Counted from the first letter of the whole stretch, positions 37,321 to 56,989 are shown. The stretch is 62,800 nt of DNA, filler included, from Stramenopiles sp. TOSAG23-2 (GCA_900128395.1; 10 parts of 10 records of this genome joined end to end with filler, not necessarily neighbours in it), one strand, 5' to 3'. Notes: generated by a model not told the origin, from the letters alone. A program made the numbers and translations.

Positions 37321-37490
37321 CTCGTTCTTTTTCTGCTAATGTAACTATTATAATAATAATATGTTTGCGTTTGTTTGTAATTGTAATGTAAAATTTATAT
37401 TATATATATAATATAAATTTTACATTACAATTACAAACAAACGCAAACATATTATTATTATAATAGTTACATTAGCAGAAAAAGAACGAG

Positions 37491-40055
37491 ATGTCAGCAT
37501 TTACACCAGAGGCATTGAAAAATATTAAAGTACCAGGATATAATGATCGTGTATTTAAAGATGAGTGTATGTTTTCGTATGATACGCCATTGTCACCAAA
37601 TGGTATATACGTATCTTTAATGAGTTTTCGTGCATATGGGCATGATTATATCAAACAAAACATCGCACCTAATGTTGACAAAGATATATTTTTGCATATC
37701 AAAATGAAAAAAGTACCAAAACCGGAGCCTGAGAAAGATGATGGTACAAAGAATGCCGAACCAGTCACGAAACTTGGAATTGGTATTGAAGGTGGTTTTA
37801 AAAATGAAGAGCAAATATGGGATACAACTAAAGAATATTCAATATATATTGATGGTGCTGAAAATGAATTGCCATATCCAAGCAATGATCTACCAATGGG
37901 CGTAACGAATTCCATCCAAGCTTTGCTAACCCATTCAGATGCAAATCTGGAAGAAGCAGCAAAATGGGAAGAACCACCACCCAAAGAATCAAAATATGCA
38001 AATGACCTCGTTCAAGATGCTAATGCACCAAAAATTTCTCCAAATCCAAAAGATTGGAAATGCGAAGATAGTGGTATGACAGAAAATTTATGGTTAAATT
38101 TATCTGATGGTTACATTGGGAGTGGCCGTCGGAATTGGGATGGTAGTGGCGGCACAGGAGCAGCATTAAAGCATTTCGAAGAGATGCAAAAGGAAGGCAA
38201 ATTTTATCCATTATGTGTTAAATTGGGCACTATTACACCAAAAGGCGCTGATATATATAGTTATGCCAAGGATGAAAATGATATGGTGGCAGATCCAAAA
38301 CTTGCTAAACATTTATCGCATTTTGGTATAAATATCATGCAAATGCAAAAGACTGAAAAATCTATGGCGGAAATGCAAATTGAATTAAATTTAAATTTCA
38401 ATTACGGTGCAATCTTAGAAGATGGAGTTCAACTTGTTAATTGTTATGCTCCAGGTCGCATCGGTTTGAAAAATTTAGGTAATAGTTGCTACATGAATTC
38501 ATGTTTACAAACATTAATGAGTTTAGAAGAATTTAAAAAGTTAAAAGATATTGCAACAGAAACATTCCGCAATTGTGGGAACAAATTGCCATCTGATGAT
38601 ATGACATTGCAATTATGTAAATTGGCTAGTGGGTTACATTCTGATCGTTATTTAAAAGAAGCAGAAGTTGTACGTAGCACTATGGAAAAACCATATAACA
38701 TGGAAGAGGATGAATTTCGTAAAAAGTTAAAGGAGGAGGAAATTTATATATCACCGATGGCATTTAAATCATTAGCTGGAAAAGGTCATCCTGATTTTAA
38801 AACATCTTTACAACAAGATGCTTCGGAATATTTAGCACATTTATTTAATCTATTGGAAACAGAGGCGAAAAGTAGCAACCAGCAAGATTTGTCAAAATTA
38901 TTTACATTTGAATTTGAAGAAAGAATGCAAATGATTAGTGGCGAGGATAATGGCAAAGTTAAATATAAAAATGTTCCTGAGAATATTTTGAAATTGGCAA
39001 TACCATTATCAGCTGTTGACAATTTACAAGAGGTTGAAACTAGTAAGAAAAAGCAAAAAGTGGAAAACAGCGAGGATGGTAAAGACAACAAAGCTGGAAA
39101 AGAAAATGCTGAAAAAGTGTTACCAAATATACCGTTCCAAGCACTATTGGATCAATTTAATCTTGGTGAAAAAGTAGATGTTAGGAAGGCACAAGCAACG
39201 AAATCGATGAAAATTTCAAAATTTTCAAAATATCTATGGATAAATTTAAATCGTGTCATTGTAAATGAGCAATGGCAGCAAGAAAAACTTGATCATACCA
39301 TTTTTATGCCAGAGACATTGGATTTGACATCGATGAAAGGTAATGGAAAATTAGATTCAGAAGTTGAATTGCCAGAAGATGAAAGTGATGGAAATGATAG
39401 TAATAACAATGCAAATGCTGAACCTGTCCCTGATGCAAATATTGTCAGTCAAATAGCCGCTATGGGTTTCTCGGAAAATGCTGGAAAGCGTGCTGCTGTT
39501 GCTACGCAGAACGCTGGAATTGAACCTGCAATGCAATGGGTTATGACACATATGGGTGATGCTGATATAAACGATCCATTGCCTAGTGGGGGTAATAATA
39601 GTAGTAGTAGCAACGGCGGCGGCGGCGGTGGTGATGGAGGCGATCCAGCATTAATTGCACAAATTTGTAGTATGGGTTTTTCCACGGAACATGCAAAATT
39701 TGCATTGAAAAAAAATAACAACAATGGTGATGTAGCAGTAATGTGGTTGTTTGAAAATTCTGCAAATGTTGATACTATGATTGCAACCGAAGCAGCACTT
39801 GCGGAAGCATCAAAAAATAATACTAAGGTTGATACTGTCACGGAAACAAATAGTAAATCGTATTCTGGTAAATATAAACTTAAAGCATTTATCAGTCATG
39901 TTGGTCGTAATACGAATAGTGGACATTATGTATGCCACGTCAAAGATGATAGTGGCAAATGGATTATATTCAATGATCGTAAAGTGAGTTGGAGTATGAA
40001 AACACCAATACAACATGGTTATATGTATTTGTATGTGACGGAAGATGAGGAATAA
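37491..40055 (+). CDS. USP5: Ubiquitin C-terminal hydrolase USP5/USP13/Ubp14 (palindrome copy 2)
   Basis: Protein identical to 34756-37320. Confidence 0.93.
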   Translation: MSAFTPEALKNIKVPGYNDRVFKDECMFSYDTPLSPNGIYVSLMSFRAYGHDYIKQNIAPNVDKDIFLHIKMKKVPKPEPEKDDGTKNAEPVTKLGIGIEGGFKNEEQIWDTTKEYSIYIDGAENELPYPSNDLPMGVTNSIQALLTHSDANLEEAAKWEEPPPKESKYANDLVQDANAPKISPNPKDWKCEDSGMTENLWLNLSDGYIGSGRRNWDGSGGTGAALKHFEEMQKEGKFYPLCVKLGTITPKGADIYSYAKDENDMVADPKLAKHLSHFGINIMQMQKTEKSMAEMQIELNLNFNYGAILEDGVQLVNCYAPGRIGLKNLGNSCYMNSCLQTLMSLEEFKKLKDIATETFRNCGNKLPSDDMTLQLCKLASGLHSDRYLKEAEVVRSTMEKPYNMEEDEFRKKLKEEEIYISPMAFKSLAGKGHPDFKTSLQQDASEYLAHLFNLLETEAKSSNQQDLSKLFTFEFEERMQMISGEDNGKVKYKNVPENILKLAIPLSAVDNLQEVETSKKKQKVENSEDGKDNKAGKENAEKVLPNIPFQALLDQFNLGEKVDVRKAQATKSMKISKFSKYLWINLNRVIVNEQWQQEKLDHTIFMPETLDLTSMKGNGKLDSEVELPEDESDGNDSNNNANAEPVPDANIVSQIAAMGFSENAGKRAAVATQNAGIEPAMQWVMTHMGDADINDPLPSGGNNSSSSNGGGGGGDGGDPALIAQICSMGFSTEHAKFALKKNNNNGDVAVMWLFENSANVDTMIATEAALAEASKNNTKVDTVTETNSKSYSGKYKLKAFISHVGRNTNSGHYVCHVKDDSGKWIIFNDRKVSWSMKTPIQHGYMYLYVTEDEE

Positions 40056-40352
40056 GAAGGAGGAGAAAAAGATTAAAGAATTAAAAATTTTAATACGGTC
40101 GTATACGTTAATAATTTTAATATAACAGTGCAACGCACTATGAATTGGCACATGAGTTACGAGCTCGTATTATATTTCTCTATACATATTCTGTGTCCAT
40201 CTCTCCACGTATACTATCAATATGTTACTTGCACACTTTAACTTTACAGGTATAATAATTTAAATAATAATATATTACGACAACATATTATATATATCAC
40301 ACATACGACGAAAATATCGATATAGAAAAAATAAACAAAGTTGTCTGACAAG

Positions 40353-41381
40353 ATGGATCAACGCGAAGAAGATGCTCTGCAATTGTTTTTAGAAAATGTA
40401 AATAAATATATAAATGGATTATGTAAAAAATCAATGCAAATAATTAAACGAAAAGAATTAAAAAAACGTGGATATTATATTTATAATAATGATGGACAAA
40501 TAAAATATACACCACCAATATCTAGAATTGAATTATCAATAAATATAAATAATGTCCCGTCAGGCGATGTAAAGGACGAATTATCATTAATGAATATACG
40601 AAGCTTGATTCGAAGACACATGAATGGAATTATAGATATGTTGTTAAATATTTTTATATTGTATTCTATTGATATTTCAACAATAACGGATGAGGAAATA
40701 TTTTTTGATAAATTTTACTTTACGTTAATGTTACAATCATTAGATGAAAATGAAGAAGAAGATGTCACAGTGTCACCGTCATCAAAGTTATTGCCTTTCT
40801 ATATATACTCGATAAATCGTACGAAATATTGCATAAATTCAATGTTGTCATATTTAGCACAAAATAAATTTTTAATAAAGAATGAATCAATTGACGATAA
40901 ATCAATCATTGATAATTTTACAAAAGATATAATTAAATTTTCGAAGGAGTTAGAATTGAATTTAGATAAAAATTTAAATGACGAAACTGAAGAAGAACTA
41001 TATGGCAATACAGTTTTTAACAATAATTGTAATGATAATAATAATATTATATTAAATTTACAACAATTGGAATTGAAAAAAGTCTTGAGAAATAAATTCC
41101 AAAATAAATGCGTGGCAGAAGAAGATGAACATGAAGGAAACCATAATGAAAATAAAGAAGAAAGCTTATTTTATGTATCATCATCGTCGTCGTCGTCGGA
41201 GAAATCATTATTATTAGTGAAGAAGAATGATGAGGATAATGATGAAGACGTTATGGTTCAAACCAAATTTGGACCTGACTTGTTAAATGATGTATCAGCA
41301 AATAAAGTATATATTGAAAATATTGATTTGTTTCAACAATTAAATGCAACTTTTGTGAAAAATTTTGCTACAAAGAGTTAA
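40353..41381 (+). CDS. Hypothetical acidic protein (palindrome copy 2)
   Basis: Identical to 33430-34458. Confidence 0.6.
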   Translation: MDQREEDALQLFLENVNKYINGLCKKSMQIIKRKELKKRGYYIYNNDGQIKYTPPISRIELSININNVPSGDVKDELSLMNIRSLIRRHMNGIIDMLLNIFILYSIDISTITDEEIFFDKFYFTLMLQSLDENEEEDVTVSPSSKLLPFYIYSINRTKYCINSMLSYLAQNKFLIKNESIDDKSIIDNFTKDIIKFSKELELNLDKNLNDETEEELYGNTVFNNNCNDNNNIILNLQQLELKKVLRNKFQNKCVAEEDEHEGNHNENKEESLFYVSSSSSSSEKSLLLVKKNDEDNDEDVMVQTKFGPDLLNDVSANKVYIENIDLFQQLNATFVKNFATKS

Positions 41382-41610
41382 GTTGTTGTGTATATTCATA
41401 AAAATGTACGTGTAATTTTTATTAGTTTTTTTTATATTTATCAAATTATATATATATGCGTTAATTGCATCTATTTACCTCCACCAACATTTTTGTATCT
41501 TAAAAATATTNNNNNNNNNNNNNNNNNNNNNNNNNNNNNNNNNNNNNNNNNNNNTTAATTAATTAANNNNNNNNNNNNNNNNNNNNNNNNNNNNNNNNNN
41601 NNNNNNNNNN

Positions 41611-44600
41611 GGTAATAATAATAATAATATGACATTGAAAGAATACGTGAATCAAGTCGGTAAAAGTAGTGGTGGTTATGGATGGACACCTTTAATGATA
41701 GCTGCAGAGTACGAACATTTCCAAATAGTTAAATATTTGATTGAACAATGTGAAGCTGATCCTAATATTGCAACTAGTGATGGATGGAATGCATTACATT
41801 TAGCAGCACATAATAACAGAACGACTACTGAGTTGATTCAATTGTTATTAACTCATATGACTATTAATAGCATTAATAAGAAGAACAGGGGGGGATACAC
41901 TCCCCTGGACGTGGCATATGCATATAATGATAATCCAATTCGCCAAGAGATCATTGCACTTATACGTTCAAAAGGTGGAAAAGCAAATTATTTTGATGAA
42001 AATGGTAGAGATGTAGGAGCAGGTAATGGTGATTTAAATGATTTACACAATACTATTAAATCTGAAAATATGGAATTATTTCGGAAATTATTGAATGTAG
42101 ATCATCGTACATTATCTATATACATGTCCAATGATCCAGAAAAGCCCCTATTACGATACGCAATCGATGTGTTAAATATTAACATATATAAAATATTAAT
42201 AAAGGATAAACGTATCAATCTAAACGAGGAAGATTTAGAAATAAAGGGTAAAACTAATTTAAATTATATATGTGAACTGAAATTTGATAAATCCAAAGAA
42301 GAGAAACACCTGGAATTAACAAAGCACATTTATCACAAAACTAAAGCAACCTACCGTGATGAAGATGATCGAGATCGTTATGCCATAGTACGTTATTGCA
42401 AATGGCCATTAGTTGTTAAATGGGCCAAATCCCTTGGTACAAAATTTCAACGTTATAAAATAATGAATGAAGAAGAACCAATACATCAATCATCAACATC
42501 AATTGTATTTTTCGCAACAGATGTTAAAGACAATAATAACAATGTAGCATTAAAACTGATGAGAAATTACGAAGAATTTGAACGTGAAATTATATCACGT
42601 TTCAGTAATAATAACAATAAAACAATTGATAAATGTGTAGTTAAAGTAATTGGTTGGCATTTACCAAATGACAATAACAAGCCATCTATTAAAACAAATA
42701 AACGTGATAATGTAACAGAACCAACTTTTCATGGAGATAAGCCATATGTATTGGTCATGGAGCGAGGAAGCAAATCTCTTTTTCATCAACTTGTTACACA
42801 ACGTATTGCTGGTTGTCACATAGACACAATTATCAATATTTTTCAACACGCTGTAATTAAAGTGAAAGCATTACATGATTTAAATTATGTACATTGTGAT
42901 TTAAAACCACGGAATTTTTTATATGTTAAACGCGATGGCATCAAAGAAGAACAATTATTATTATGTGATATGGATGCAGCATGCCAAAAAGATAGTCAAC
43001 GTGATGAAACATTAAAATATAGCACAGGGTATTGTCCACCTGAATTAGCTCGTTGTATATTCACCGCTAATGACCAAATGAACAAAATCGAAACATCATT
43101 TGATGTTTGGTCATTAGGTGTATTATTATACGAATTATGCACTGGTCAAAATTTATTTCCACAAGATATTAGTAATGATAATATTGTTAATGAAATCGAT
43201 AAAAGTATTTTATGCGCATGGCATACTATTCCTGATTCATATTTAAACTTAGTTGATTTTCCAAACAATCTACAAATGACAAAAGATGCCCGAAATTTAA
43301 TTCGATGGTGTTTAAAAGGAAGTCCATCTAGTAGACCGTCACTAAAAAATATATTAAATCATCGATTATTAAATGGAAATAATGATTTGGATAAACAACC
43401 AATGAAATACCATATGTTTATATCCCATATGCAAGCTGAATCTTCAGGGGAAGTGGCGGCTTTGGAAAAATCATTAGCCACATTAGGTATAAATGTATGG
43501 CGGGATATGTCTCAAACAAATATTAATCCAAACGGCATGATCCAAGGTGTAATTGATACAGATGTATTTGTAGTTATGTTAACTAATAGCTATATGTCAA
43601 GAAAGTATTGTCTATTAGAATTTGCTACTGCATTATTATATCAAAAACCAATTATTGTTATAGTAGAAGAAAATAAAATGTTTTGGCAATGGGATTTAAA
43701 ACGTTGGCAGGGAAACATTTGTTCGCGCAAAACGGATAATATATCAACAGAAGAACGTGGATGGAAAAAGTCTATTGACTATGATGCTGACGGCAATCCA
43801 GTATCAAATTTACAAAATACATATGAAGATCTTGAAACGAAAGATATGGGATTTACAAATTTTCAAGCTTTTAAAACTATGACAAAAGATTTGAAATTGT
43901 CAAACTTTCAAGCGTTACAAACGAATAAAGCAAATCATATACGTGATAAAATAATTGAAATTGACGAGAAGAAAGAAATGATACCCCATCGTCGTCGTGG
44001 ATTTGAATATGATGCAATGCTATATGAGGTCATAGAACGAGCTGGTATTAAAATTCCCGTTCCAAAATCGCCAAAATTTAAACATGATCACAAATTCATG
44101 GTAATTTATAATAATACGACACAAGCAGAAAAAAAAAACGGTGAAGACATTATAAATTCATTAGAAGAAGAAGGTATGAACCAAACATATACAGAGAATA
44201 TTACAGCTGTTGAATATCTAATAGTTATTTTAACGGGTGGTGTAATGGAAAATCCAACATGTTTAGAAAATTTCAAAAACATTCTGGTAACGAGGAAAGA
44301 TTTATTAGATGATAAAAAGGTTATTTTTATCATGTCAAAACATGATGGTTGGAAATTTGAACCAAGTGCGACAGAGAAAGCAGCGAAAAATGTCACAGCT
44401 AAAGAAGTACGAAAGGTGATTAATGATGGTCATGAAGTTATGACATATCGACCAAAAGGTTTAAATCGTGATTATGAGCATGATTCGATGATGGTGGAAA
44501 TGATGAAACGTTTGGGCTTGGCAACAGTAGAAGAAGTTGCGACAATGAACGAACAGCAGAATGGTGTGGTGGTGGTGGTGGATACGGAAGAAGAAGAGAA

Positions 44601-44637
44601 AGTTGGTGTTGATGATGATGAACGCAAAGAAGATTGA
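41611..44637 (+). CDS. Ankyrin-repeat / non-RD protein kinase / TIR / TIR-like protein, probably 5' truncated
   Basis: Ankyrin repeats (WTPLMIAA, WNALHLAA, YTPLDVA). Kinase at ~42470-43370 (VALK, HCDLKPRN, DMD, YCPPE, DVWSLG). TIR from 43405 (YHMFISH..LGINVWRDM..GVIDTDVFVVMLTNSYMSRKYCLLEFATAL). A second degenerate TIR at ~44092-44517. The frame is open to the contig start. Confidence 0.85.
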   Translation, partial: GNNNNNMTLKEYVNQVGKSSGGYGWTPLMIAAEYEHFQIVKYLIEQCEADPNIATSDGWNALHLAAHNNRTTTELIQLLLTHMTINSINKKNRGGYTPLDVAYAYNDNPIRQEIIALIRSKGGKANYFDENGRDVGAGNGDLNDLHNTIKSENMELFRKLLNVDHRTLSIYMSNDPEKPLLRYAIDVLNINIYKILIKDKRINLNEEDLEIKGKTNLNYICELKFDKSKEEKHLELTKHIYHKTKATYRDEDDRDRYAIVRYCKWPLVVKWAKSLGTKFQRYKIMNEEEPIHQSSTSIVFFATDVKDNNNNVALKLMRNYEEFEREIISRFSNNNNKTIDKCVVKVIGWHLPNDNNKPSIKTNKRDNVTEPTFHGDKPYVLVMERGSKSLFHQLVTQRIAGCHIDTIINIFQHAVIKVKALHDLNYVHCDLKPRNFLYVKRDGIKEEQLLLCDMDAACQKDSQRDETLKYSTGYCPPELARCIFTANDQMNKIETSFDVWSLGVLLYELCTGQNLFPQDISNDNIVNEIDKSILCAWHTIPDSYLNLVDFPNNLQMTKDARNLIRWCLKGSPSSRPSLKNILNHRLLNGNNDLDKQPMKYHMFISHMQAESSGEVAALEKSLATLGINVWRDMSQTNINPNGMIQGVIDTDVFVVMLTNSYMSRKYCLLEFATALLYQKPIIVIVEENKMFWQWDLKRWQGNICSRKTDNISTEERGWKKSIDYDADGNPVSNLQNTYEDLETKDMGFTNFQAFKTMTKDLKLSNFQALQTNKANHIRDKIIEIDEKKEMIPHRRRGFEYDAMLYEVIERAGIKIPVPKSPKFKHDHKFMVIYNNTTQAEKKNGEDIINSLEEEGMNQTYTENITAVEYLIVILTGGVMENPTCLENFKNILVTRKDLLDDKKVIFIMSKHDGWKFEPSATEKAAKNVTAKEVRKVINDGHEVMTYRPKGLNRDYEHDSMMVEMMKRLGLATVEEVATMNEQQNGVVVVVDTEEEEKVGVDDDERKED

Positions 44638-44836
44638 TAAAAAAAGGGGTGTATGTTTTATATAATATATATAATCATATTTAAAAAAAAGAACATTTAT
44701 CATATCATAGTAAAATATTTTAAAATAAAACTCCGCCTTCTTTTCCCTTTTCTCTTTTTTAATTACTCTTCTCTTACTTTCCATCCCCTCATTCCTTCAC
44801 TACACAACCCATTTTACACCACGCACCCTCTACATA

Positions 44837-45883
44837 TTAAACCACATGCCCTTTCATCGTGAAATGTTGTAAACTTCCAGTAAAATCATCTTTTAAATTC
44901 AATTTAAAACCATTCTTCACATTCACCACATCGACATATTCATTTCCATCTAATGCTTTTCTACCAATTTTACGTATTTTATGTTTTTTATATTGTATAC
45001 GTTTCTTTTGACTATTATCACCACCACCACCACCATCATCATTACCATATGATAATTTCGTATTAAATGTATGAAAATTTAATTGGCTACCATTACTTTC
45101 TGTATTTTCATCAACACAATAAATTGCACAACGTACATATGTACCATATGGAATAATTTCTAAATACCAATTTTCATGTTCATTATTATTATTTAAACTA
45201 ATACCACCAGTATTGACATTTTGAACAGGTACTTTACTAAAACCTTTTACACCACAAAATTTCTGATGTGTAACAACAATACTATAAACACATGTCGATG
45301 TTTCACTTACATCTTTAATTTTAAATGTACTACCACATGCATATGTTACTGTCGTTTCACGTTTTGGTTCACCAGTCACTGCTTTACATACTTCACCATC
45401 AACATATCGTTGTGATTTACGATTTGGATTATTTGAATTTGATGATACAACAGTTTTTCCCATTAAATAATGTTCTTGTTTATGTTTTTGTTTGACATGT
45501 TTACCTATACATACTTCATAATTCCAAAAACCTTTATCTGAAGATGCACAACGTCCATTTAATTGTTGTATAATTGTTGCAGCTGTGATTTCTGGTGTTT
45601 TCGCTTTTTTCTTCTTCTTCTCTGCTTCTTCTTCTTTTTTATTATTATTATCATCCGTTGTTTTTTTCTCTTGTTTTTTAGACGTGGATGTTTTATATTT
45701 AAATTCACAAGATATTATTTCACCAGTTGGCATAGTCGATATAACTTTTTGTGAATTTGTTTCTTCTTTTCCAATTGTAAATGCAACAACATCATTGTTT
45801 TCATGATTTTCTTCATTTTCAGAAGCATGATTGATTTGGATCAATGTTGTAATAACAATGATAAGGAATATTATATTTTTCAT
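44837..45883 (-). CDS. OS-9/PRKCSH-like ER lectin with an MRH domain
   Basis: Signal peptide; CASSDKGFWNYEVCIGKHVKQKH, YVDGEVC..KRETTVTYAC and VSETSTCVYSIVVTHQKFC keep the Q-R-E-Y mannose-binding residues. Confidence 0.8.
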   Translation of the reverse strand: MKNIIFLIIVITTLIQINHASENEENHENNDVVAFTIGKEETNSQKVISTMPTGEIISCEFKYKTSTSKKQEKKTTDDNNNKKEEEAEKKKKKAKTPEITAATIIQQLNGRCASSDKGFWNYEVCIGKHVKQKHKQEHYLMGKTVVSSNSNNPNRKSQRYVDGEVCKAVTGEPKRETTVTYACGSTFKIKDVSETSTCVYSIVVTHQKFCGVKGFSKVPVQNVNTGGISLNNNNEHENWYLEIIPYGTYVRCAIYCVDENTESNGSQLNFHTFNTKLSYGNDDGGGGGDNSQKKRIQYKKHKIRKIGRKALDGNEYVDVVNVKNGFKLNLKDDFTGSLQHFTMKGHVV

Positions 45884-46231
45884 TGCTTTCTTTGTTGTGT
45901 ATATCTTTATGAATATATATTGATTCTTAATCCAAATTTATCTAAATTTATCTAAAATTATAATTCTTATTTTTTTTTTTTCCCCGTCTACGAAATAATT
46001 TCAAAAAGTGTTGATATATTAACTCTGTTTGCTTTTTGTTATAATGATGATGTTTCTACACACACACACACACACACTTTCGTACAACCAACAATATTTT
46101 CTCTCATTTTACAACTTCACCTCGGTTACCAAGCAAGGAAACATGTCGGGCAAGCACAATATTCACCACATTTATTCATTTTTTTGCTGCTTTTATTAGA
46201 GCTGTGTTGAGTGTTGAGCCGAAGAGGTTAA

Positions 46232-47003
46232 AAATGGCAGAATTTATTAAATTTTATTTTTTATTTTCAACTTTTTTTTTTTTTCTTACCCTCCCTCTAT
46301 AATATAGCTCTATAGGCTCTAGGATCTAGGATTTAATATTAATATATATAGTAGATATTGACTTAAAGTAAAAAGTAATTAAGATATTTTTAACTTTTAT
46401 TTCAGGTTTGCAACTTGCAACTTGCAACTGGTCAAAAAATAGTTGATTATATTTCGAGCCCTTTACAGCTGTGCTCAGGATTACTTTAGTTTTATTAAAA
46501 GTATCGATCAATTAAGTATTGTATATTGTTTATTATTTTCAACCTTTTTTTTTTCTTACCCTCTAGCATTTAATATAATATAGTAGATATTGACTTAAAG
46601 TAAAAATAATTAAGATATTTTTTTAACTTTTATTTCAGGTTTGCAACTTACAACTGGTCAAAATATCAAAATACAGTCGATTATATTGATTACATTTTGA
46701 GCCCTTTACAGCCGTGCTCAGGATTACTTTAGTTTTATTAAAAGTATATCGATCAATTAAGTATTGTATATTGTATAAGTATTGTATGTAGCATTACGTA
46801 AATTTTGTTTTATTATTTTCAACCTTTTTTTATTTTTCTTATAGCATGAACTAGCATTACGTATTTATATATTAATATTTATTTTTAAAAAAACCTCTGA
46901 AATTGCTTGTGTAATGTTATTTCTATCCTAGAGGGGGGCTGAAAAAAAACAAAAGTTGAAAAAAAAAATTAAAAAATTTCAATTTTATTAACTTTTGCCA
47001 TCT
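46232..47003. mobile_element. Candidate degraded non-autonomous DNA transposon with TTAA flanks and imperfect TIRs (Kolobok-like)
   Basis: The left end TTAA|AAATGGCAGAATTTATTAAA..TTCAACTTTT..CCCTCTA matches the reverse complement of the right end TTAA|AGATGGCAAAAGTTAATAAAA..TTCAACTTTT..CCCTCTA. There is an internal ~240-bp imperfect tandem repeat and no ORF. Confidence 0.45.
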
Positions 47004-47321
47004 TTAATGTAAATAACTCTAATTTACATTTTTTATTATTTATTATATATACTATAAGAGGCATATGTCACACATATTGTATTAATGATCAATCCAAATA
47101 ATAAAATATTGTTATTCATTGTCGTATATATATATATATATTGTGAATTTCGCATCGTATATTACGTTGTATACGAAATTAAATTTGTGGAATTTTTTTT
47201 TTTTAGATTATTTTTTTTTCATCGTCATCATCATCATTAATTAAATATTTTTATTATTTAAAACTCTTCAAATTAAATACAATCAAGCATTTAAATTATA
47301 TATTACCATATATCAGTAAAC

Positions 47322-48681
47322 ATGCCAACTAAATCCAATTCCATACCACTTGGTACACGAACCGCCGTATATACAGATACAACTGGTAACAACGATCATG
47401 CCGGTGATAATCCCAATATCCCAAGCAATAACAGGAACAACAATAATAATAAACGAAAACGGGATAATAATAATATTCCAATAAGACGTTTTAATGATGA
47501 TGATGATGTTAATAACAATCATAATAGTAATAAACGTTATCGTTCACATTCACGTAGTCATTCTCGTCATGGGCATAGCAATACGAACTACAACTACAAC
47601 AAACAACACAATCGAAGATATCGTTCCAATTCACGTAGTCATTCTCGTTACAATAACAACAACAAACAACACAATCGAAGATATCGTTCCAATTCACGTA
47701 GTCATTCCCCACCAAAACGTGCTATACATGATAAATTTACATTTGAAATGCCACCAAGAATATATCCATATATGAATCCACGAATACGCAATGCACGTAC
47801 TGTTTTATTGACAAATATCAACACAAATGTTGGTGCATTAGATATTAAAATGTTTTTTGAACAATATAATCATTTACATGATTTAAATCAAGTAGTTGTT
47901 GGTAAAAAGAATATTTCAAGTAATCAAAACATTATTCCAACCACCACCACAACCACGACGACGACAACGGAAAAAAACAATAATACTATTATTGATGATA
48001 AAAAACCAACAGCGGATGATGTAAACCATCAAATAAAGAACAGTAAGGAGGAAGATACTGGCGCTGATGATGAAACAAACAAACAAACAACAAAGAAAAC
48101 CAATGGATTACCATTGTTAAAAATATATGATATAAGTATATTATTACATCCAAGATTACAAGAAAGAAAGAAATCACCTTCTCAACAATTTATTACCTAT
48201 AGTAATCGTAGACAATCTAAATGTATTGCATATGTTGAATTTCAATCGATTAAAATGGCAGAAATAGCTATTAGACGATATAATTCAAAAGAATTTCTTT
48301 ATCAGTAAGTATATAATTTTACATATTTATATATATATATATATTAACAATATTATATCAAAAATGCATACTAACTATCATCATCATTATTATTTATATT
48401 TACATATTTATATATAATATAGAAATGGTATTAAAAGTCAATATAAAGTACGTATACAACCTGCAGTGGATCGAATGGATAATCAATCCGATTTAGCAAT
48501 GGAAGAAGAAAAAGAATGGTTTAAAAATAAAATAGCATATGATGAAAATATTAAAACACGTCGACGATTTCATTCAAAAGATGGTGAAGAAGAGGAAGAG
48601 GAGGAGAAAGATGGCGATGACAAATACGATGGTGATAATAATTATAATTATTACAATAAAGATGCTATTATAGTTCTTTAG
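47322..48681 (+). CDS. RS-rich RRM protein (RBM39-like RRM); two exons, 47322-48304 and 48423-48681
   Basis: RS/H repeats, RNP2 RTVLLTNI and RNP1 SKCIAYVEF. Intron 48305-48422 (GTAAGT..ACTAAC..ATAG) joins in frame to ORF 48466-48681 and supplies the last strand KVRIQPA. Confidence 0.75.
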
Positions 48682-49025
48682 ATAATAAAAAAGTATTATA
48701 GCAACGTGCTGGTTGTGTATATATAATACTTTTTTGTTTTTTTATATATATTTTAAAAACAAATTTCGAAAAAAAAAAATTTAAATTTTAATTTTTTTTC
48801 TGAATTTTTGAAAAGTTTTGATTATTTACTTTTTCAACATACAAATAGATTATACAAATTGTAACGTGTGAACAATACAATTACATACAAGTAAAATCAC
48901 ATAGAATAAAACCGAGATAGATAGATTTCGTTCTACATTATATTAGCATCATAGGTTAATTTATAACGACGATATTTATTTATTTATATATCCAGATTAT
49001 TATAAATATAAAATCAACAAAAAAC

Positions 49026-49770
49026 ATGTACTACAATAATAATAATCATTCGTCATCGTTCAGATCATCTCAACAACGTGCGACATATATCGATTGTAAC
49101 AATAAAACATTACGTATACAAAAACATTTAGGGTCAGGTGTATTTGGTAACGTATATAAAGCATATGAAACAAATACAGGAAATGAATATGCAATTAAAA
49201 TGACAAAATATAATAATATTGAACCAGAAAAAGGTATAAATGAAATTCAAATATTAAAATATTTACAACATTATAATGATATCGATCAAAAAAATAAAGA
49301 ACATGGTAATAATAATAACAACAACAACAACAATATTATTAAATTTATCAATTCGTTTATCTATCGTGTAAAGAATAATGACTATGAATCAACTAATAAT
49401 GATAAAAAAGATAAAGTACATAATGAATTTTTATCATATCGTTGTATTGTTATGGATTATGTTGGACCATTTACATTACGAGATGCATTGAATAAAGGTT
49501 ATATTACGGATGTAATTCAATATAATAATAATAACATCAATAGAACAAATTGCGATGATCGTTATACTATTAAACAAGTCATGAAAGATATATTAAGCGC
49601 GGTTACATTTATGCATTCATTAAATATAACACATCGTGATATAAAACCAGAAAATATTATTTGTCAAATTAGTTCCAATCGTATCGTTCGCGTCGTTTTA
49701 GCTGATTTTGGTTGTGGTAAAATGTTGACATATAATTCAAATGAAAATCATATTTTATTATCAACAACAA

Positions 49771-49802
<32 letters not shown>

Positions 49803-49818
49803 CAATTAGTAACATCAT
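49026..49818 (+). CDS. Ser/Thr protein kinase, 3' truncated
   Basis: LGSGVFGNVYKA, YAIK, HRDIKPEN and LADFG, with poly-Asn inserts. Confidence 0.9.
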
Positions 49819-49918
49819 NNNNNNNNNNNNNNNNNNNNNNNNNNNNNNNNNNNNNNNNNNNNTTAATTAATTAANNNNNNNNNNNNNNNNNNNNNNNNNN
49901 NNNNNNNNNNNNNNNNNN

Positions 49919-52506
49919 AGAAACAAAGAAATTTTGTACGCTTAATGAAAAAATGTAGTGAATACGCTTTGAATGGAATTGATTACAAACATTGTAAAAC
50001 AATGAAAGACGTTAAAAAATTATTGATCTGTTCTACCAAAATCACTTCGCGTAATAAAGGGAAATATTATGATTTATTTGATGATTACGGAACACAATAT
50101 CATTTTTATGCATTTTTATATTTGATGTTTTCATCAAACCTTTCGCCTTTAATTATGAAAAAGAAAGATACGTATTTTCAACTACTTGATGTCTCGATGA
50201 GAGATTTTATTGCGAAATGCGATCAGAAAGCGAATGAATTGGGGCAAAATATTTCATCGTATGATGTTGAAAAACATATCGAACATATTTTTTTACCTTT
50301 TTTTCAAAAACATGCTAGAACAATCAATCACTTTTCTAATATTGACAGTCGTGCTGTCAATGAAAATAACAATATCGTATCTTACAAATTATGTGGCGTT
50401 GAATTCCTCCATAATGATGATAGTGAAGAAGAACATAGCCAAGTTGATAATGATAATGTAGATAAATTTATGCCTTTCAATGCTAATACAAAATCGAATA
50501 AATATGTTGATCAAAAAACGTTACACATCGGTACTATTGGTTTGCAGACAGATGAAATTGATTCTTCACCACAGAAGATCTCTATCTCATACAGCGATTT
50601 GGATTCTATTCGTTGTGAAGAAATGATTGGTAGTACTGGTCATAGTGCAAAAATTAATCCAAAATCAACAGTACGCATTACATGTATTTTTAAAAAGCAA
50701 CTTCCACCAAACGCATTAAAGAATTTAATGAACGTTGAGCTTGATGGTATTCTTGATAAATATACTGGAATAAATTTATATGTAGATATTACAAACGATG
50801 AAAAAAGTAAAAATGCATGTTTATTGTTAAAAAATAAATTGGAATCAATTTTCGAATATACATGCAATTCTTACGATATCGACGATAAAAAATCAAAAAA
50901 AGGTAGCAGTTCAAGTAAATCAAAAAGCAATGACAGTAAAGGTAGTCAGAACAACGATAAAAAGAGGAAGAAGAACACTAAAACTACAAAAGGTAGCAGT
51001 TCAAGTAAATCAAAAAGCAATGGCAGTAAAGGTAGTCAAAACAACGTAGCCAACGATGTAAGTATATATGTATTTCTTTTTTGTTGCATGAATAATTCCC
51101 TAACAACTGTTTCTTTTATTGTTATTGCACATAGGATTATCGAATTATAGGATTATCGAAATGGGAAAAGGATTTGATGTTGCAATTACAAGCATATGTA
51201 AACCAAAACAAACGTTTACCTCATTCAACAGACCGAAAGCTTTACGAACGAATGATTTATTTTGTTGCAAAAATCAATACAGCAAATGACACAAAGAAAA
51301 CGCGTGAGCAAATAGTCGAAGAATACTTAGGTATTCAATTAAGCAATGTAAGTAACATCATGGAATATATTCTAATTTTTTTTTTACCCAAATGACTATT
51401 CCCTAACAACTGCTTATTTACCACTCTCTACACACAAACTTATATATATATATATATAGACGGATTCGGGAGAAATTGTAATTGAAGAAGACATTGCGGA
51501 AGAAATTGCGGAAGAAATTTCGGAAGAAATTGCATCCAACTATGGCAATTACGACGAGGCGGAATACCCATATTACAATGAACCTTGGAATAAATGCTTG
51601 ACGGAACAAACTCGTAGAAGTGGTTTAAAATACGTAGTCAATGTAGACAGAAATAATACGAATATTACGCATGTTTTAATTCTACTCAATCCGACACCAT
51701 CATTAATTTCAAAATTGAACCATGATGGAACAATCAAGCTTGAGGATTACCCGGCACCGACTGTCGTAGCAGCTATTGAAGCATTAGGTAGAGTAGAAAA
51801 AGTAGGAAGTGTCATGGTTTTAAACGCAATATCGGTACCCACCAGCAACGCGTGCAACTTATATCGATTTTTTCAAAACAACCCAGGCACTTTCGAAGCC
51901 AGTTGTAAAGAAGCATTTAGCAATTTATGTGCGGTTTTGAAACAGCTTCCAACATCCACCTCTGTTTTTCTTGGGTGTGGTAATGGTTGTTTTGGCACGT
52001 TGCAAGAGAAATTTTTCGCGCATTACGTCAGAATTTTGCAAAAATTATTGGAATGGCATCGTTCGGTAGAAAAGAAATTAACTGCAACACCGATAATTAC
52101 ATTTGGGCAAACGCAACAAGGATACGCGAAACATCCAAGTGGCTTGGTTCGCAGGAGTATGGAATTAGTCCCTGAATTGCATTATGCGGAAAGATTAATT
52201 GATCTTGTAAAAAACTGTGAAGAAAAAATTGCAAAAAAGGAACATGAACAAACATCACAAGCATCGTCATCAAAAAAAAGAAGATCAACCAATGGAACTA
52301 CCAGACGCAAAAGAGGGAGAAAAATGATACGTCAAAGTAACTATGTTGGTGCAATGGTCAACGATGGTCCTATCGAACGTACGGGGAAAATTGTTCTTGG
52401 ACCTGTGCTTGGTCACAAACGTGTTCCAAACGTTAAATATGATTCTTTAGAAGGTATGAATCCTGGGCCTGATGAAAACTTCAGAGATGAGAATTATGAA
52501 TTATAA
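49919..52506 (+). CDS. Three-exon gene (<49919-51057, 51135-51347, 51460-52506) with a C-terminal DUF1643-like domain
   Basis: Two phase-0 introns, 51058-51134 and 51348-51459 (both GTAAGT..TTCCCTAAC..AG), join ORFs 49945, 51174 and 51598 in frame. The last exon has ILLNPT, PTV, VLNAISVPTSN, FLGCGN and FGQTQQGYAKHPS. Confidence 0.72.
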
Positions 52507-53260
52507 TGGAGAACAATCAATGTTGTAAAACAAAACATAGGAGAGCTGTTAAAATTAATATGCTTAGATTTATTTTATTATTTTATTATACATATTGAAC
52601 GTACCTCTATATCTTGTTTTCATTATTTTTTCGTATTCGCAAGTTGTACACATTCACTCACCTCTTTTTTCAATGATATTTGTTTTTCAAAGCCTCTTTT
52701 GATACAAACATTAGAGAAATACAGTATATATAACTGAAAATGATGCATGGCAAGTTTAAATGTTGAATTAAAAAAAAAGTAATCAAAGATTCGTGTTCAT
52801 ATTCACAACATAAAAGGTTTAGGTATATTTGGAACCCTACGCACTAAGAATAGGCAAAGAAATTGAGATTAAAGTGTTTTTTGAAGAATTAGTGTAAAAA
52901 TTATAGCAATGGATCAAAATCACGTTAAATTAAGTCTACCAGAGTAGATGAAAAGTAGAATAATTTTAAAATTATTTAGTTACAAATAAAATTAATTTAT
53001 ATATATATTTAAAATAAAATATTATTACGATATTTTTATTTTACTCACATACCTACTGCCTCAGAGGAAAAAAAAACTAAGACATTTTGTTTAAAACTAT
53101 ATGTTTTAGAGGATCATACATTTTTTTCATCTCTGATCACTTTTTATTATTTCCTTTTCCATGTATTTTTTATATATATATATATATTTTTGACAGGCTT
53201 TTGCGGCTTTATTATGTATTTGTTAGTATACAATATAATCCCTATTATAACAAAGTTACG

Positions 53261-54131
53261 ATGGTATATAATGAGGAAAGTCACACTGGCACAGGATTAA
53301 AAGCAATTATTGGAGTTATGGTTTACATATCTTGTTGGAAATTATAATAACAGGGAATGAATGTGCAAACATTGCAGCTAGAGCGGTATCAAATACATTG
53401 GCAACTTCAAGTGGACCAGAATCTGCATCACGTATTATGGAAAGTGGTGGCTTAGGAAAAGTATGTCAATATTTAAAAACTTGTAAATTAGGTGAAACGG
53501 AGCCGCTTGTCATTGCAGAAACATTGAAAGTAGGAAAAAGATGTTGTGAACGATTTCGTCCAGATGCGCAAGATTTATTGATTGAAGAGGGAATTTTTGA
53601 ATATTTAATTGATTGGGTATGTTTTACAAAGGAAATGCAATTGGAACAAGATGAATCGCCACCTGATCATATCGAAAATATGCGCATCGAAAGTGCAAAA
53701 ACACTTTATTTTTTAACATTAGATAATGTCGAGATACAAATGTTACATACTGGAGATATTATAAAACAAGCTATGGATGCATATGTATCATCAATAGATA
53801 AATATCCAACATTATTAGAAGAATTATGTAGATGGTTTGGTGCAATTGTTTCAAAAATATATATGATCAACAAATTGTATTTACACGTTTAAACGGATTT
53901 GATGATGTTTTAATTGATTCAATATATCATGGACATACAAAATTAAGAGGTCGAGCATTATTAGCACTATCAGAATTAGTTGATGCAAATGATAATGTGA
54001 AAGATCGTATGTATAAATCAGGAGTATGAAATGTCATTGAAAATCTTCATGGTGGTATCAATGATTGTGATGATAAAAATATGAATGGAACTATAATGTT
54101 GGAAAAAATTGGGATAGTTCGTTTGTATTGA
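53261..54131 (+). pseudogene. Disrupted ARM/HEAT-repeat gene
   Basis: ARM-like helical sequence is spread over different frames (53261-53347, 53332-53892, 53832-54029). After the TGA at 54027 the frame reads on to 54131. Confidence 0.55.
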
Positions 54132-54293
54132 CTAGGACAGAGTAAATGAATTATATACTGACAAACTTCGTATAATGATTAATAAAAAAATATTATTATA
54201 TAATATGTGTTTTTCTCTTTATATATACGTATATATATATGATGCATATTTAAAATGATGGTTAAAATCTTAAGTTATACAAATGATATATTT

Positions 54294-55226
54294 TTACTCT
54301 CTTCCTGGTACAAATCTACCATTTTCATCAAAACAATTTGCTTTTCCACCTTTTGAACGTATAAGATCAATGATCTCTTGTTTAATTGGACTATTATTAT
54401 ATTGGTATACCAGATCCAATACTGTCTCTCCTCTATCATTTGTATTATTAATACTATCATCAGTCATATGACTTAATAACAATTGAATCAACTCAGTACT
54501 CTTTACGTTATTCTCTCCTGCATAATGTAAGGCATTCCATCCACAACTATCTTTAATATTAGGATCAGCATCATGTTGTTCAATCAAATATTTAACTATT
54601 TGGAAATGTTCGTTCCATACAGCTATCATTAAAGGTGTCCAACATTCATAACCATCACTATCTCCACCGAATTGATTCACCATATCTCTCAATGTCATAT
54701 CATCTCTGTAGCCATTAACATCACGATTAGTAATATACTTGTGATAAGGATGAAGACTCATAAATAATTCTACATCATCCATACGTCCGTGTTCACATGC
54801 ACATACAATAGGTGTTGGTACTTCACCATCTGCATCTTCTGGAAACTCTTGTTTATATCTTACAATTAATAAATAAAGTCTTCTCGCTGGATGTGTTAGT
54901 AGTATCTCATTTATACTTCTTCTACCTTCATAACTTAGACTCAATGCTATATCACGTACACGTTCAAAATCATCTGATCCAAATGCTTTTCTACATTGTT
55001 GTATTAAAGATGATCGTTTCACATTACATAATGTTTTAATGTCTAAATATTGTAATATATTTAACATGATCCCGCAGGCAGATTCAAATCCAGCTGGTAA
55101 AACTAATATACCAATCTTAATAGGTGGTGGTGCCCTTTTTTGTTTTAACCCTTCAATTGTTGATGGTTTTAACAACGTACGACATTGTCGTTTTGCAGGT
55201 GGTTGGTTAGTGGTCATCGATGCCAT
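54294..55226 (-). CDS. F-box-like motif plus ankyrin-repeat protein
   Basis: VLPAGFESACGIMLNILQYLDIKTLCNV is F-box-like. Ankyrin repeats PTPIVCAC, WTPLMIAV, WNALHYAG and ETVLDLV. ATG at 55226 or 55241. Confidence 0.75.
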   Translation of the reverse strand: MASMTTNQPPAKRQCRTLLKPSTIEGLKQKRAPPPIKIGILVLPAGFESACGIMLNILQYLDIKTLCNVKRSSLIQQCRKAFGSDDFERVRDIALSLSYEGRRSINEILLTHPARRLYLLIVRYKQEFPEDADGEVPTPIVCACEHGRMDDVELFMSLHPYHKYITNRDVNGYRDDMTLRDMVNQFGGDSDGYECWTPLMIAVWNEHFQIVKYLIEQHDADPNIKDSCGWNALHYAGENNVKSTELIQLLLSHMTDDSINNTNDRGETVLDLVYQYNNSPIKQEIIDLIRSKGGKANCFDENGRFVPGRE

Positions 55227-56562
55227 GATGTGTTTATACATATATATATATATATTCTCTTGTTTGTTTTTTTTTACTATATGTATCTTTGTATGTACGT
55301 ACCTGTATGTTGCTTATTATATTTATATCTTTATAATACTGTGTATATATATCTTTGCTTTTTTTCTTCTTAATAACCAGAATTCTTGGAAAATGGTTTA
55401 CCTGTGGTTTACCTTAACTTTGCAGACCTGGCTCCAGAATTCCAGTGCCGGCACATCCAGGATTCCAGAATTCCATAATTCCAGAAATAATTGAAAAAGA
55501 GAAGATTTGGATTTATTATACAGAAATAAAAAAATAAAAAAAAATGAAGAGGGCAAGAAATTATTTTTCTTTAAACCTGAAAAAAGATCAACTCAACTTT
55601 GCCAGTTTGCCAGTTGTTTGCTGTTTCGGGATGAAATTCGTTTAAAAAAGAATTGATAGTTTAGCAAGAACATACCATCATATTTCACTTCCTATATACC
55701 GCGCCTCGAAACTCGAAAATATAACCAATAAGAAGTAACACTACTTTTCATAGTCTAACAAGTGAAAAAAAATGAAAAATTCACAACATTTTAGTACGAA
55801 ACCATAGAGTACAAAATCACATTTTATTGATAGGTAAAAATTCAAATTCCATGAAAAAATAAAAAGTTAAAAATTGCAAAAAATAAATACCTTCACGGTG
55901 ACGATTTTTGATGAAAACCAAAACCTTAAAAAATTAGTATACTATTTATTGTACTTTTTGAAATTGAAATATTTTGACCGTACTGAAAACGGTTCCTGCC
56001 CAAATGTAGTGAATTTTGTAAAAGTTTATACTCATTAGTATATGGATTTGTGTTTATATTATGTGTTGTTTTATTTTCAGGGCATATATAGGAACAATAA
56101 TTTCAATAATGTGCCGTTATTTGAAAGTGAGATTTATCAAAAAATAACACAATAAATTATTTTGCAAATAATCTATTATTTTTGATAGGTAAAAACGATC
56201 ATCCCTGTGCTATTTGTATGTATCGATACATAATGATGAGAGTTAAAAAATTAGCTAGAAGTCTGGGAATAATAGCTTTATTATTTGGAAGAGAACCCGC
56301 GCATCAATGCTAATGTACTACCTGGTATGATGCACACAGCATAAAAATAAAGAAAAAATACCAACAAAGGTATATAAAGTGGAGTGTGGTAAATATAGAT
56401 ATTGAAAAATACAGAGAAAAAGAAATTGCGAACTTTGTTAAACAAAGATATTGTCACACACGCAAAATATAAAAATATAAAATACATTTATAAACGTACA
56501 TTGGATTTAATATCCCCCCACCCCCCAAACCCCTCAGAAAAAAACTAACAAAAATAAAAAAA

Positions 56563-56817
56563 ATGAGGGAATTAATGAATTTCAGAATAAATGATGTGAT
56601 TGCACATCGAGCAGGTGCATCACTCAATTATTACATTGTTGAGTCAATTATGAATCGACATGTATACGAATTTTCACCTTTGATATGGAATGGTCGTTGT
56701 TTTGTAAGAGAGGGCATGTTACCAGGTGATAAGTGTGAATATACTTTCAACCAATTGATGGCAGATGAAGCAATTGGTGAGGAATGGAGGATGGTGAGAG
56801 TGAGAGTTGAAAATTGA
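56563..56817 (+). CDS. Small orphan protein (84 aa)
   Basis: ATG ORF with protein-like composition and higher GC than both very AT-rich flanks. Confidence 0.4.
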   Translation: MRELMNFRINDVIAHRAGASLNYYIVESIMNRHVYEFSPLIWNGRCFVREGMLPGDKCEYTFNQLMADEAIGEEWRMVRVRVEN

Positions 56818-56989
56818 AATATATTATTTGTATATTTTTATATATAAAATAATTTTTTCATAAATATATATTTTATGTTTTTATGATACGGATAAAACAC
56901 AAAAATTATACGTAAAATATTTTATATATATATATGTGTATATACTTCCTTTTTGCAATAACGTGTTACCATAATTGATACTGGTAAGT

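Follow-up and report, generated by a model that had tools for sequence, protein, structure and literature searches.

A shared ankyrin-repeat module under diversifying selection in a marine protist gene family: a candidate recognition repertoire

Introduction

Two genes in a stretch of DNA from Stramenopiles sp. TOSAG23-2 (GCA_900128395.1) raise the question of whether a protist holds a family of ankyrin-repeat binders in which the recognition surface is diversified on a constant scaffold. The stretch, 62.8 kb in length and referred to here as the window, contains gene 1, in which an ankyrin cassette is followed by a protein kinase and a TIR domain, and gene 2, in which a similar cassette follows a lineage-specific N-terminal domain. 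A sequence-only reading of the window had proposed that both cassettes belong to a recently expanded, hypervariable module which is shuffled onto signalling (kinase-TIR) and degradation (F-box) outputs, and which would be a candidate antibody-like innate immune repertoire.

We compared the two cassettes with each other and with their relatives in protist assemblies and marine metagenomes. The reading which we consider probable is that of a nuclear ankyrin family with a constant scaffold, a diversified binding surface and various partner domains, which would serve as a recognition repertoire. A published description of this family was not found in full-text literature searches made outside subscription journals and supplementary files.

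Results

The two cassettes of the window

The window consists of ten contigs arranged by falling length (seven are close to 8.2 kb and three to 1.46 kb) with spacers of the form N44-TTAATTAATTAA-N44 between them (e.g. 8242-8341, 41511-41610). As the contigs are merely joined by these spacers, adjacency between contigs is uninformative. The two cassettes lie on separate contigs (41611-49818 and 49919-58122) and are the only two copies found inside the window by tblastn.

As had been proposed, a gap-free alignment of 109 codons joins 41683-42009 (+) and 54315-54641 (-), in which 269 of 327 nucleotides (82.3%) and 78 of 109 residues are identical. The manual count of 31 replacement codons versus seven silent ones, and of 15 versus one in the first 60 codons, proved to be exact. 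Differences at two or three bases were found in 17 of the 31 replacement codons, and the multi-nucleotide changes that had been singled out (GAG/TGG, GCA/AAA, CAT/GAG) are all present. The framework had also been described as nucleotide-identical, which is not strictly so, with 71 of the 109 codons identical and the seven silent changes grouped in codons 63-79. The aligned segments are the gap-free parts of longer cassettes; the homology continues upstream for another 18 codons (as far as 41629 and 54698), interrupted by an indel of one codon, and is cut in gene 1 by the contig start.

The ratio of non-synonymous (dN) to synonymous (dS) substitution rates (dN/dS, omega) of this pair was 1.01 by NG86 (0.203/0.200), 0.64 by maximum likelihood (0.195/0.307) and 0.55 by YN00 (0.184/0.336). 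At 20 hypervariable columns, which were defined from 112 cassettes external to the window, 14 of the 20 codons differ and dN is 0.66, against a dS of 0.17 when all 127 codons are counted (Fisher p = 4.6e-4); outside these columns, in 107 codons, dN is 0.156 and dS is 0.152. By itself the window pair does not prove selection, whereas the wider family does, and the two copies are ordinary members of that family and not a special pair.

A portable module present in hundreds of copies

Of 1051 candidates compared with gene 2, 418 relatives of about its length passed E <= 1e-3, and the best 120 listed of these were 56-83% identical over almost the full length. When the cassette only was scored against longer proteins (551-1754 aa) there were 73 matches, 12 of them at 52-75% identity. 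Among these 12, P0121-P0123 carry two to four modules in tandem, P0124 (1666 aa) has kinase+TIR, P0126 has RING, and P0138 and P0139 have MYND. The cassette is thus a shared, portable ankyrin module that exists in hundreds of copies and is carried by different partners, most often the lineage-specific N-terminal domain of gene 2 and otherwise kinase+TIR, RING, MYND and further regions. The portable unit is larger than had first been described, being made up of a degenerate ankyrin repeat, R0 (...TPxVCACExGRxDDVxLF...), an insertion and then the three repeats of the cassette, about 170-190 aa in total; R0 and the insertion belong to it in most architectures.

A scan of metagenome contigs gave 128 coding relatives, and 78 loci (677 kb) were retained. 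These loci and the window together yielded 89 near-full cassettes from 70 sources, 16 of which held two and one of which held four. The distinct cassette DNAs (n = 87) have a median pairwise nucleotide identity of 81.6%, so the proposal that the family is recently expanded stands only in part, as its recency is not established. Among 101 cassette-bearing open reading frames (ORFs), 59 also carried the gene 2 N-terminal domain and one, gene 1 of the window, carried kinase+TIR, proportions that are biased toward the gene 2 type because a query of that architecture was used to retrieve the loci. A 2281-aa ORF of locus L070 that scored as three cassettes was set aside as a generic ankyrin-ubiquitin protein.

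The sequence runs that match the window are marine or seawater metagenomes and metatranscriptomes. Run matches of small share (X11-X20) were left out of account for habitat and expression. In four runs the cassette drew 177-1388 contig records at >= 90% identity and the unique kinase-TIR part drew single contigs only. Contig depth summed over the cassette was hundreds to thousands of times that over the unique part in these four runs, which is not a copy number and is a sign that the framework is highly repeated.

Variation is concentrated at binding-surface positions

In 84 full-length relatives of gene 2 the mean column entropy was 0.62 bits in the N-terminal part versus 1.02 bits in the cassette, and columns above 2.5 bits made up 1.1% and 16.4% of the two parts respectively. 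The hypervariable columns (counting M of MTLKEYVNQ as 1) are 13, 15, 17, 19, 27, 28, 51, 53, 58, 61, 62, 86, 87, 88, 90, 95, 98, 99, 101 and 121. Measured from the TPLx motif in each repeat, the variable positions are the hairpin tip, the residue directly before TPLx and helix positions 10, 13 and 14. This placement on the first helix holds in every repeat, and the scaffold around it is conserved, largely at silent sites too. Changes are therefore concentrated at the hypervariable positions and not spread evenly over the structure.

At each hypervariable site 10-18 residues occur, most often Y, W, D, R, N, G and C, and pairs of sites, neighbouring ones included, share almost no mutual information (mean z 0.3-1.4). 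Codon use at these sites is skewed. Arg is written as CGT, CGC or AGG and Gly as GGG, versus AGA and GGT or GGA in the framework, a pattern which would be expected of codons lately moved between residues by point changes. Third-position A is found in 10% of hypervariable codons versus 36% of framework codons, and this depletion may be either an imprint of recent amino-acid changes or an avoidance of codons that lie one step from TAA or TGA.

In designed ankyrin repeat proteins (DARPins), randomization affects what we take to be hairpin positions 2, 3 and 5, helix positions 13 and 14, and position 33. Mapped with these presumed numbers and by sequence motif, 18 such positions fall in the cassette and 13 of them are among the 22 sites which the codon model described below places under selection (hypergeometric p = 1.5e-8). 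The variability thus lies at predicted concave-face positions, as in the variable paratope of a DARPin.

Selection at the hypervariable codons

Parsimony on a tree of 87 cassettes counted 2435 non-synonymous and 469 synonymous changes. With our codon-model implementation the one-ratio model M0 gave an omega of 0.97 for these 87 sequences, and the selection model M2a (log likelihood, lnL, -12861.6) was far better than the nearly neutral M1a (lnL -13465.0), with twice the difference in lnL (2dlnL) equal to 1207. M2a placed 26% of sites in a class with omega 6.6, and 22 sites had a posterior above 0.95.

The N-terminal part of the same genes served as an internal control. In 52 full-length genes on one tree, its 177 columns had an omega of 0.25 with 3.9% of sites in the selected class, six of them at a posterior above 0.95, and five of these six lie in the hairpin and at position 13 of R0 (family-alignment columns 132-136 and 147). 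The cassette of the same 52 genes, on the same tree, had an omega of 1.11 with 19% of sites at omega 8.0 (2dlnL = 1012). The parsimony values for the N-terminal part and the cassette were 0.49 and 1.55.

M2a tests can be inflated by recombination, and for this reason the M1a/M2a comparison was repeated with a separate tree for each repeat and a tree-free test was added. The separate trees gave 2dlnL values of 360, 255 and 442. The tree-free test used 43 non-overlapping nearest pairs and the 18 positions chosen beforehand from DARPin library design, by the numbering presumed above. The pre-defined class had an omega of 4.83 (bootstrap confidence interval, CI, 3.73-6.31) and the rest 0.86, and the proportion of non-synonymous differences exceeded that of synonymous ones (pN > pS) in 40 of the 43 pairs. 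In codons for the same residue, silent differences amounted to 0.145 per site at hypervariable positions, 0.096 in the pre-defined class and 0.081 in the framework. A silent excess of at most 1.8 times is too small for a simple mutation hotspot to explain a five- to eight-fold excess of amino-acid change. At about 20-24 codons of the module, amino-acid change runs at five to eight times the silent rate.

We also considered whether exposed, variable residues simply drift under relaxed constraint while the scaffold is held by purifying selection, with no selection for diversity. The whole-region dN/dS of the window pair (0.55-1.0), the cassette-wide M0 omega (0.97-1.11) and an omega of about 0.86-1.0 for the class outside the hypervariable codons are all compatible with this. 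Neutral sites cannot exceed the silent rate, however, and the pre-defined contact class does so with a lower confidence limit of 3.73, M2a is preferred to M1a by the margin given above, and in 42 pairs with 2-4% framework divergence 37% of hypervariable codon bases are different. Relaxed constraint is accordingly a highly improbable explanation, and diversifying selection on the hypervariable binding-surface positions, as had been suggested from the window pair, is strong across the family by M2a, by the tree-free test and by comparison with the N-terminal control.

Exchange between module and partner

At best, the gene 1 cassette shares 89.4% of its nucleotides with a cassette from a gene of the gene 2 type, and the second copy of the window ranks only 64th of 86 in closeness to it. 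The general pool therefore encloses the kinase-TIR cassette. How far apart two members are in the N-terminal part says little about the distance between their cassette frameworks (Mantel r = 0.19).

Tandem neighbours in three loci, L025 (8992, 10486), L034 (9908, 11856) and L009 (8761, 10001), differ by 1.2-3.2% in the N-terminal domain. Their cassettes differ by 11.6-13.5% in the framework and by 46-55% at hypervariable codons. Near-identical N-termini joined to cassettes as unlike as those of random members point to conversion or exchange with a breakpoint between the domain and the module. The pairwise homoplasy index (PHI) is significant over the full gene (p = 0.003) and not significant within the cassette (p = 0.24). 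Exchange of partner domains, by which the module is uncoupled from its partner, is supported; patchwise exchange within the module is not shown.

Rapid turnover at the variable codons

The genes at L013:2524-3420 and L008:3276-4175 are syntenic and belong to two assemblies, whose sequences stay collinear for 5.1 kb and are 96.8% identical there. Divergence between the genes is 2.4% in the N-terminal part and 2.2% in the cassette framework, versus 30.6-33% at hypervariable codons. In several codons every base is replaced, and the cassette has a single silent change. The near-identical orthologues L034, L025 and L038 have 0 differences in 63 hypervariable bases. This turnover could possibly be due to strong recurrent selection in a huge population, to ectopic conversion or to a dedicated mechanism.

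A pair such as L013 and L008, about 97% identical overall and different at about 31-33% of hypervariable codon bases, resembles hyper-polymorphic alleles, and the family might then be a self/non-self system for allorecognition or mating, like the fungal het/NOD-like receptor (NLR) loci, held by balancing selection among individuals and not by pathogens. Selected sites are placed alike in the ankyrin repeats of fungal NLRs, according to the available text of that study (PMC4986451). Against such a system stand the hundreds of paralogues with many partner domains, which exceed known allorecognition systems, and the identity of the L034, L025 and L038 orthologues at their hypervariable codons. 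In addition, neither NACHT nor NB-ARC was found in gene 1 or gene 2 (Pfam, E <= 0.01), and neither gene is an NLR. We regard allorecognition as quite improbable.

The same pair bears on whether the codons are rewritten by a dedicated mechanism (codon-scale templated replacement, micro gene conversion or targeted mutagenesis), with selection only filtering the products. Complete three-base codon replacements on a background divergence of 2-3%, the near linkage equilibrium of the hypervariable sites and their deviant codon usage would all fit, as would three pairs in which 6-11 hypervariable codons in a row are identical, one pair being the gene 1 cassette and L020_6074. However, over all pairs the hypervariable codons in common do not gather into tracts (longest run on average 1.97 versus 1.88 when permuted, p = 0.15), no exact donor patch for the L013/L008 differences was found among the 85 other cassettes, a small sample, and the PHI result within the cassette points the same way. 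Changes involve all four bases and are not adenine-specific as in diversity-generating retroelements, and no reverse transcriptase was present among the 25 most frequent of 137 neighbouring Pfam families (80 ORFs), a survey in which a template repeat was not searched for. The family accordingly does not have the marks of such a retroelement. Ordinary positive selection in very large populations could presumably reach these rates, and a dedicated mechanism is in our judgement improbable.

Partner domains

Both window genes carry ankyrin repeats above the curated Pfam cut-offs, with Ank_2 at 88.3 bits in gene 1 and 85.0 bits in gene 2 (cut-off 27.3) and Ank at 59.8 bits in gene 1 (cut-off 21.1). 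The cassette matches ankyrin-1/2 (to E = 1e-48), NOMPC and DARPin chains such as 2xee in the PDB.

The gene 1 kinase (Pkinase, 107.6 bits) is a eukaryotic protein kinase by its Pfam match and by the aspartates of the catalytic loop, HCDLKPRN, which aligns to HSDLKPAN of TTK, and of DMD, which stands in place of DFG with the Asp kept. In the PDB it comes closest to TTK, Aurora and DYRK (about 1e-11), and it is not specifically IRAK- or RIPK-like. The TIR_2 match (34.1 bits) is above the Pfam gathering score of 28, a second, weak TIR match lies at residues 855-908, and a phmmer search of the PDB with the TIR region gave no match. The translation has a glutamate in the stretch ...YCLLEF..., which we presume to be where the catalytic Glu of enzymatic TIRs lies. 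Matches reported by PADLOC reflected generic kinase, TIR and ankyrin similarity and were not used.

The kinase+TIR unit forms a family of its own, with 44 proteins at E < 1e-56 among the relatives of 42376-44634 (P0194-P0234), from protist assemblies and marine metagenomes. Their N-termini are ankyrin repeats, leucine-rich repeats (LRR), SPRY, WD40 or EF-hand domains, or none, and the family is, as judged from these predicted domains, a modular sensor-kinase-TIR architecture with an interchangeable N-terminal repeat domain. Within it the cassette module occurs only in gene 1, P0124 and P0195 (1059 aa), the latter two being longer homologues of gene 1 with more N-terminal modules.

The F-box identity that had been proposed for the gene 2 partner could not be established. 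Its N-terminus scores 13.8 bits with F-box-like PF12937 (cut-off 24.3) and 12.9 bits with F-box PF00646 (cut-off 20.5), over profile positions 8-28 only, and similar sub-threshold matches, over the same profile positions, appear in two of ten divergent relatives. A profile search of PDB sequences with the domain found no F-box and a single chance match (HisF, E = 0.57). Searched as a profile against 1.84 billion representatives it gave 62 matches, and the ten divergent ones scanned with Pfam all carry ankyrin repeats. In language-model features the F-box clusters were nearest to the domain (score 0.91, 92 of 256 features), which is a lead only. We regard it as a lineage-specific domain, which may be a divergent F-box.

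Feature map of the two genes

The coordinates of both genes are collected in Table 1. Gene 1 is truncated at its 5' end by the start of its contig at 41611. The tail that follows its cassette is the C-terminus of most family members and is absent from gene 2, and contigs from other runs part from the gene 1 sequence shortly beyond it, at about 42043-42051. The gene 2 ORF begins, at 55226-55241, five codons 5' of a Met that matches the conserved start of the family (MASLTT...), and this second Met is probably the true start.

Table 1. Features of gene 1 and gene 2, in window coordinates
Feature	Position	Strand	Basis
Gene 1, ANK-kinase-TIR ORF, 1002 aa	41629..44637	+	ORF list; Pfam
Cassette copy 1, 127 codons, three ankyrin repeats (MTLKEYVNQ...DENGR)	41629..42009	+	Full-length match to cassette hidden Markov model (HMM)
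Family tail DVGAGNGDLN, directly after cassette copy 1	42010..42039	+	Translations, family consensus
Gene 1 protein kinase domain	42724..43368	+	Pfam Pkinase, residues 366-580
Gene 1 TIR domain	43417..43671	+	Pfam TIR_2, residues 597-681, E = 4.5e-8
Gene 2, 315-aa ORF: lineage-specific N-terminal domain, then four-repeat ankyrin module	54294..55241	-	ORF list
Cassette copy 2, 128 codons	54315..54698	-	Cassette HMM
Degenerate first ankyrin repeat R0 (...PTPIVCACEHGRMDDVELF...) and insertion	54699..54890	-	Conserved with cassette in P0121-P0135
Conserved N-terminal domain, about 115 aa, F-box-like at best	54882..55226	-	Omega, Pfam, profile searches

Genomic context

The window is AT-rich (G+C 23-39% per 2 kb). 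Its long uninterrupted ORFs encode ordinary eukaryotic proteins, among them a USP5-type ubiquitin hydrolase, exportin-7-like and glucosidase-II-beta/OS-9-like proteins, PRMT, JmjC and TLDc, and an Rfam scan of the window found no RNA gene. In an Atlas search the USP5-like protein was placed among eukaryotes and no more closely. In the family loci 80 long neighbouring ORFs match 137 Pfam families, and tubulin, eukaryotic aspartyl protease, phosphoglucomutase, Myb, ubiquitin and MFS and ABC transporters are the commonest, as judged from the 25 most frequent. No relatives were found by pattern-based scans of IMG/VR viral contigs and prokaryotic genomes. The family is best explained as a very large one in the nuclear genome of a marine eukaryote that is AT-rich and uncultured. 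A contig of a related organism covers 42403-44045 at 97.7% identity.

Further ORFs were seen in the window. Those at 10285-12666, 12677-16255, 21994-24891 and 49945-51147 (794, 1193, 966 and 401 aa) match no Pfam family at E <= 1e-5, and another protein-kinase ORF (Pkinase, 88 bits) at 49026-49817 reaches the end of the gene 1 contig. The contig at 33302-41510 is a perfect palindrome, with arms at 33335-37405 and 37406-41476 (4071 nt each, 100% complementary, no spacer), and consequently has two identical USP5-like ORFs of 854 aa and two identical ORFs of 346 aa. Its form suggests either a chimera made during whole-genome amplification or an artefact of assembly.

Such palindromes are typical of amplification chimeras, and the gene 1 cassette lies at the very edge of its contig, so that the sharing of the cassette might itself come from chimeric single-cell-amplification contigs. 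This is contradicted by the recurrence of both architectures in metagenomes and in assemblies made independently (ANK-kinase-TIR in P0124 and P0195, the other type hundreds of times) and by a reading frame that is continuous from the cassette into the kinase. The probability of an artefact is in our view close to negligible.

Discussion

The evidence presented here points to a nuclear ankyrin family of constant scaffold and diversified binding surface. In the mechanism which we propose each copy would be a germline-encoded binder with its own specificity, and the copies together would form a natural DARPin-like library. The binder would bring a rapidly changing set of targets to its output domain. 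For the forms with the gene 2 N-terminal domain or RING this output would probably be recruitment of a ubiquitin ligase, and for gene 1 it would probably be kinase/TIR signalling or NAD+ cleavage. The likeliest targets would be fast-evolving non-self proteins of viruses, parasites or prey, in which case the family would act as an innate recognition repertoire.

Several points weigh against this reading. The window pair alone has no whole-region dN/dS above 1. The codon models are our own implementation (F3x4 frequencies, fixed FastTree topology, fixed relative branch lengths and one free scale factor) and not codeml or HyPhy, and they were applied to paralogues mixed with orthologues or alleles, taken from several assemblies and from metagenomes and not from one genome. 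Recombination is present by PHI over the full gene, and M2a may be inflated by it. Variable sites were mapped onto ankyrin positions by sequence motif in place of a three-dimensional model. As the F-box identity of the commonest partner is not established, the degradation output is conjecture. Contigs from a metatranscriptome library cover 43107-44642 at about 94-98% identity, which is not proof of transcription. Recognition would be the function suggested by the sequences, and an immune or antibody-like role is a putative one.

A bolder form of the proposal would see a germline "natural DARPin library" of hundreds of copies, with near-independent paratope-like residues that are renewed by a dedicated codon-scale process (micro gene conversion or targeted replacement), wired to TIR/kinase and ubiquitin-ligase-type outputs, an innate immunity that would have arisen independently of NLRs, Toll-like receptors (TLRs), antibodies and variable lymphocyte receptors (VLRs). 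We consider this conceivable and, on the present evidence, unlikely.

Diversifying selection and a large copy number would fit an arms race from either side, and the proteins could instead be offensive effectors with which a predator or parasite binds and redirects proteins of its host or prey. ANK + F-box effectors of poxviruses and intracellular bacteria bind and redirect host proteins in this manner, and the cassette family resembles them, as we take the poxvirus proteins to be built, in joining ankyrin repeats to a part of the ligase-recruiting type. It is unlike them in that the docking-like domain is N-terminal (the reversed order), the neighbours are eukaryotic housekeeping genes and no viral or prokaryotic relatives appeared in the pattern scans. 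For the Chlamydiae, expanded ubiquitination-related families have been reported, in an account whose available text names F-box 64 times and ankyrin repeat twice (PMC4209131).

An offensive role is made less attractive by the N-terminus (MASLTTNPPPAKRQR...), which is basic and would resemble a nuclear-targeting patch rather than a signal peptide, and by the kinase+TIR and MYND fusions, which suggest signalling inside the organism's own cell. No feature of secretion or delivery turned up, although none was specifically searched for. We think an offensive role rather improbable, and return to the recognition repertoire.

Fungal NLRs are the closest precedent for such a repertoire. In the available text of Dyrka et al. 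(2014, PMC4986451) the selected or polymorphic ankyrin sites of these receptors lie on the concave face, in inner helices and hairpin loops, and highly conserved ANK, TPR and WD repeats are joined to many effector domains, with recombination and concerted evolution invoked. The cassette family shares with what is described there a conserved framework, selected sites of the concave-face type and varied partners. It differs in having no NACHT or NB-ARC, in its marine protist host and in its partners (kinase+TIR, RING, MYND and the lineage-specific domain). The conservation seen here is between paralogous, fixed four-repeat modules and not among near-identical repeats within one protein, and no variation in repeat number was seen.

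In DARPins, as far as the available text of two accounts goes, a constant ankyrin scaffold carries variable concave-surface residues that form the paratope (PMC8683736, PMC8229355). The cassette family is built alike, with a constant scaffold and the overlap of mapped library positions and selected sites given above, and is unlike DARPins in being a natural germline multigene family and not a synthetic library, and in the variation of helix position 10 and of position 16 in the third repeat.

Nematode and plant F-box and MATH-BTB adaptors were reportedly found by Thomas in 2006 to be under selection in the substrate-binding part with the ligase-docking part conserved, and a role against foreign proteins is said to have been proposed. 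For wild C. elegans isolates, large diversity and strong positive selection of F-box genes are described in the available text of PMC8120010. The cassette family is likewise large and fast-evolving, with an N-terminal omega of 0.25 and module sites at about 8. In contrast to the F-box adaptor families, the docking domain here is below the Pfam F-box thresholds, the substrate part is ankyrin and the module also occurs on partners that are not ligases.

The ROCO-LRR and NB-ARC-TPR families of Ectocarpus are, in the available text of Zambounis et al. (2012, PMC3341825), shuffled repeat families under diversifying selection and proposed immune receptors. They too are shuffled, diversifying repeat domains of a protist-grade eukaryote. 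In Ectocarpus, by that account, the repeats are LRR or TPR with one exon per repeat, and exons are shuffled, whereas the cassette family has ankyrin repeats, its ORFs are intron-free and the unit is the entire module.

Diversifying repeat-domain receptor families are a hallmark of innate immunity in plants, animals and fungi. To our knowledge almost nothing comparable is documented for the uncultured heterotrophic and mixotrophic protists that dominate the ocean. The family described here is a concrete, sequence-defined candidate for such a system, with a compact binder module, a delimited variable surface, very strong site-specific selection and distinct outputs. It makes several questions testable: what the ligands would be (viruses, parasites, prey or conspecifics), whether the N-terminal domain would dock to cullin and whether the TIR domain would have NADase activity. 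As a natural counterpart of engineered ankyrin binders, it also shows which positions and which residues evolution itself varies.

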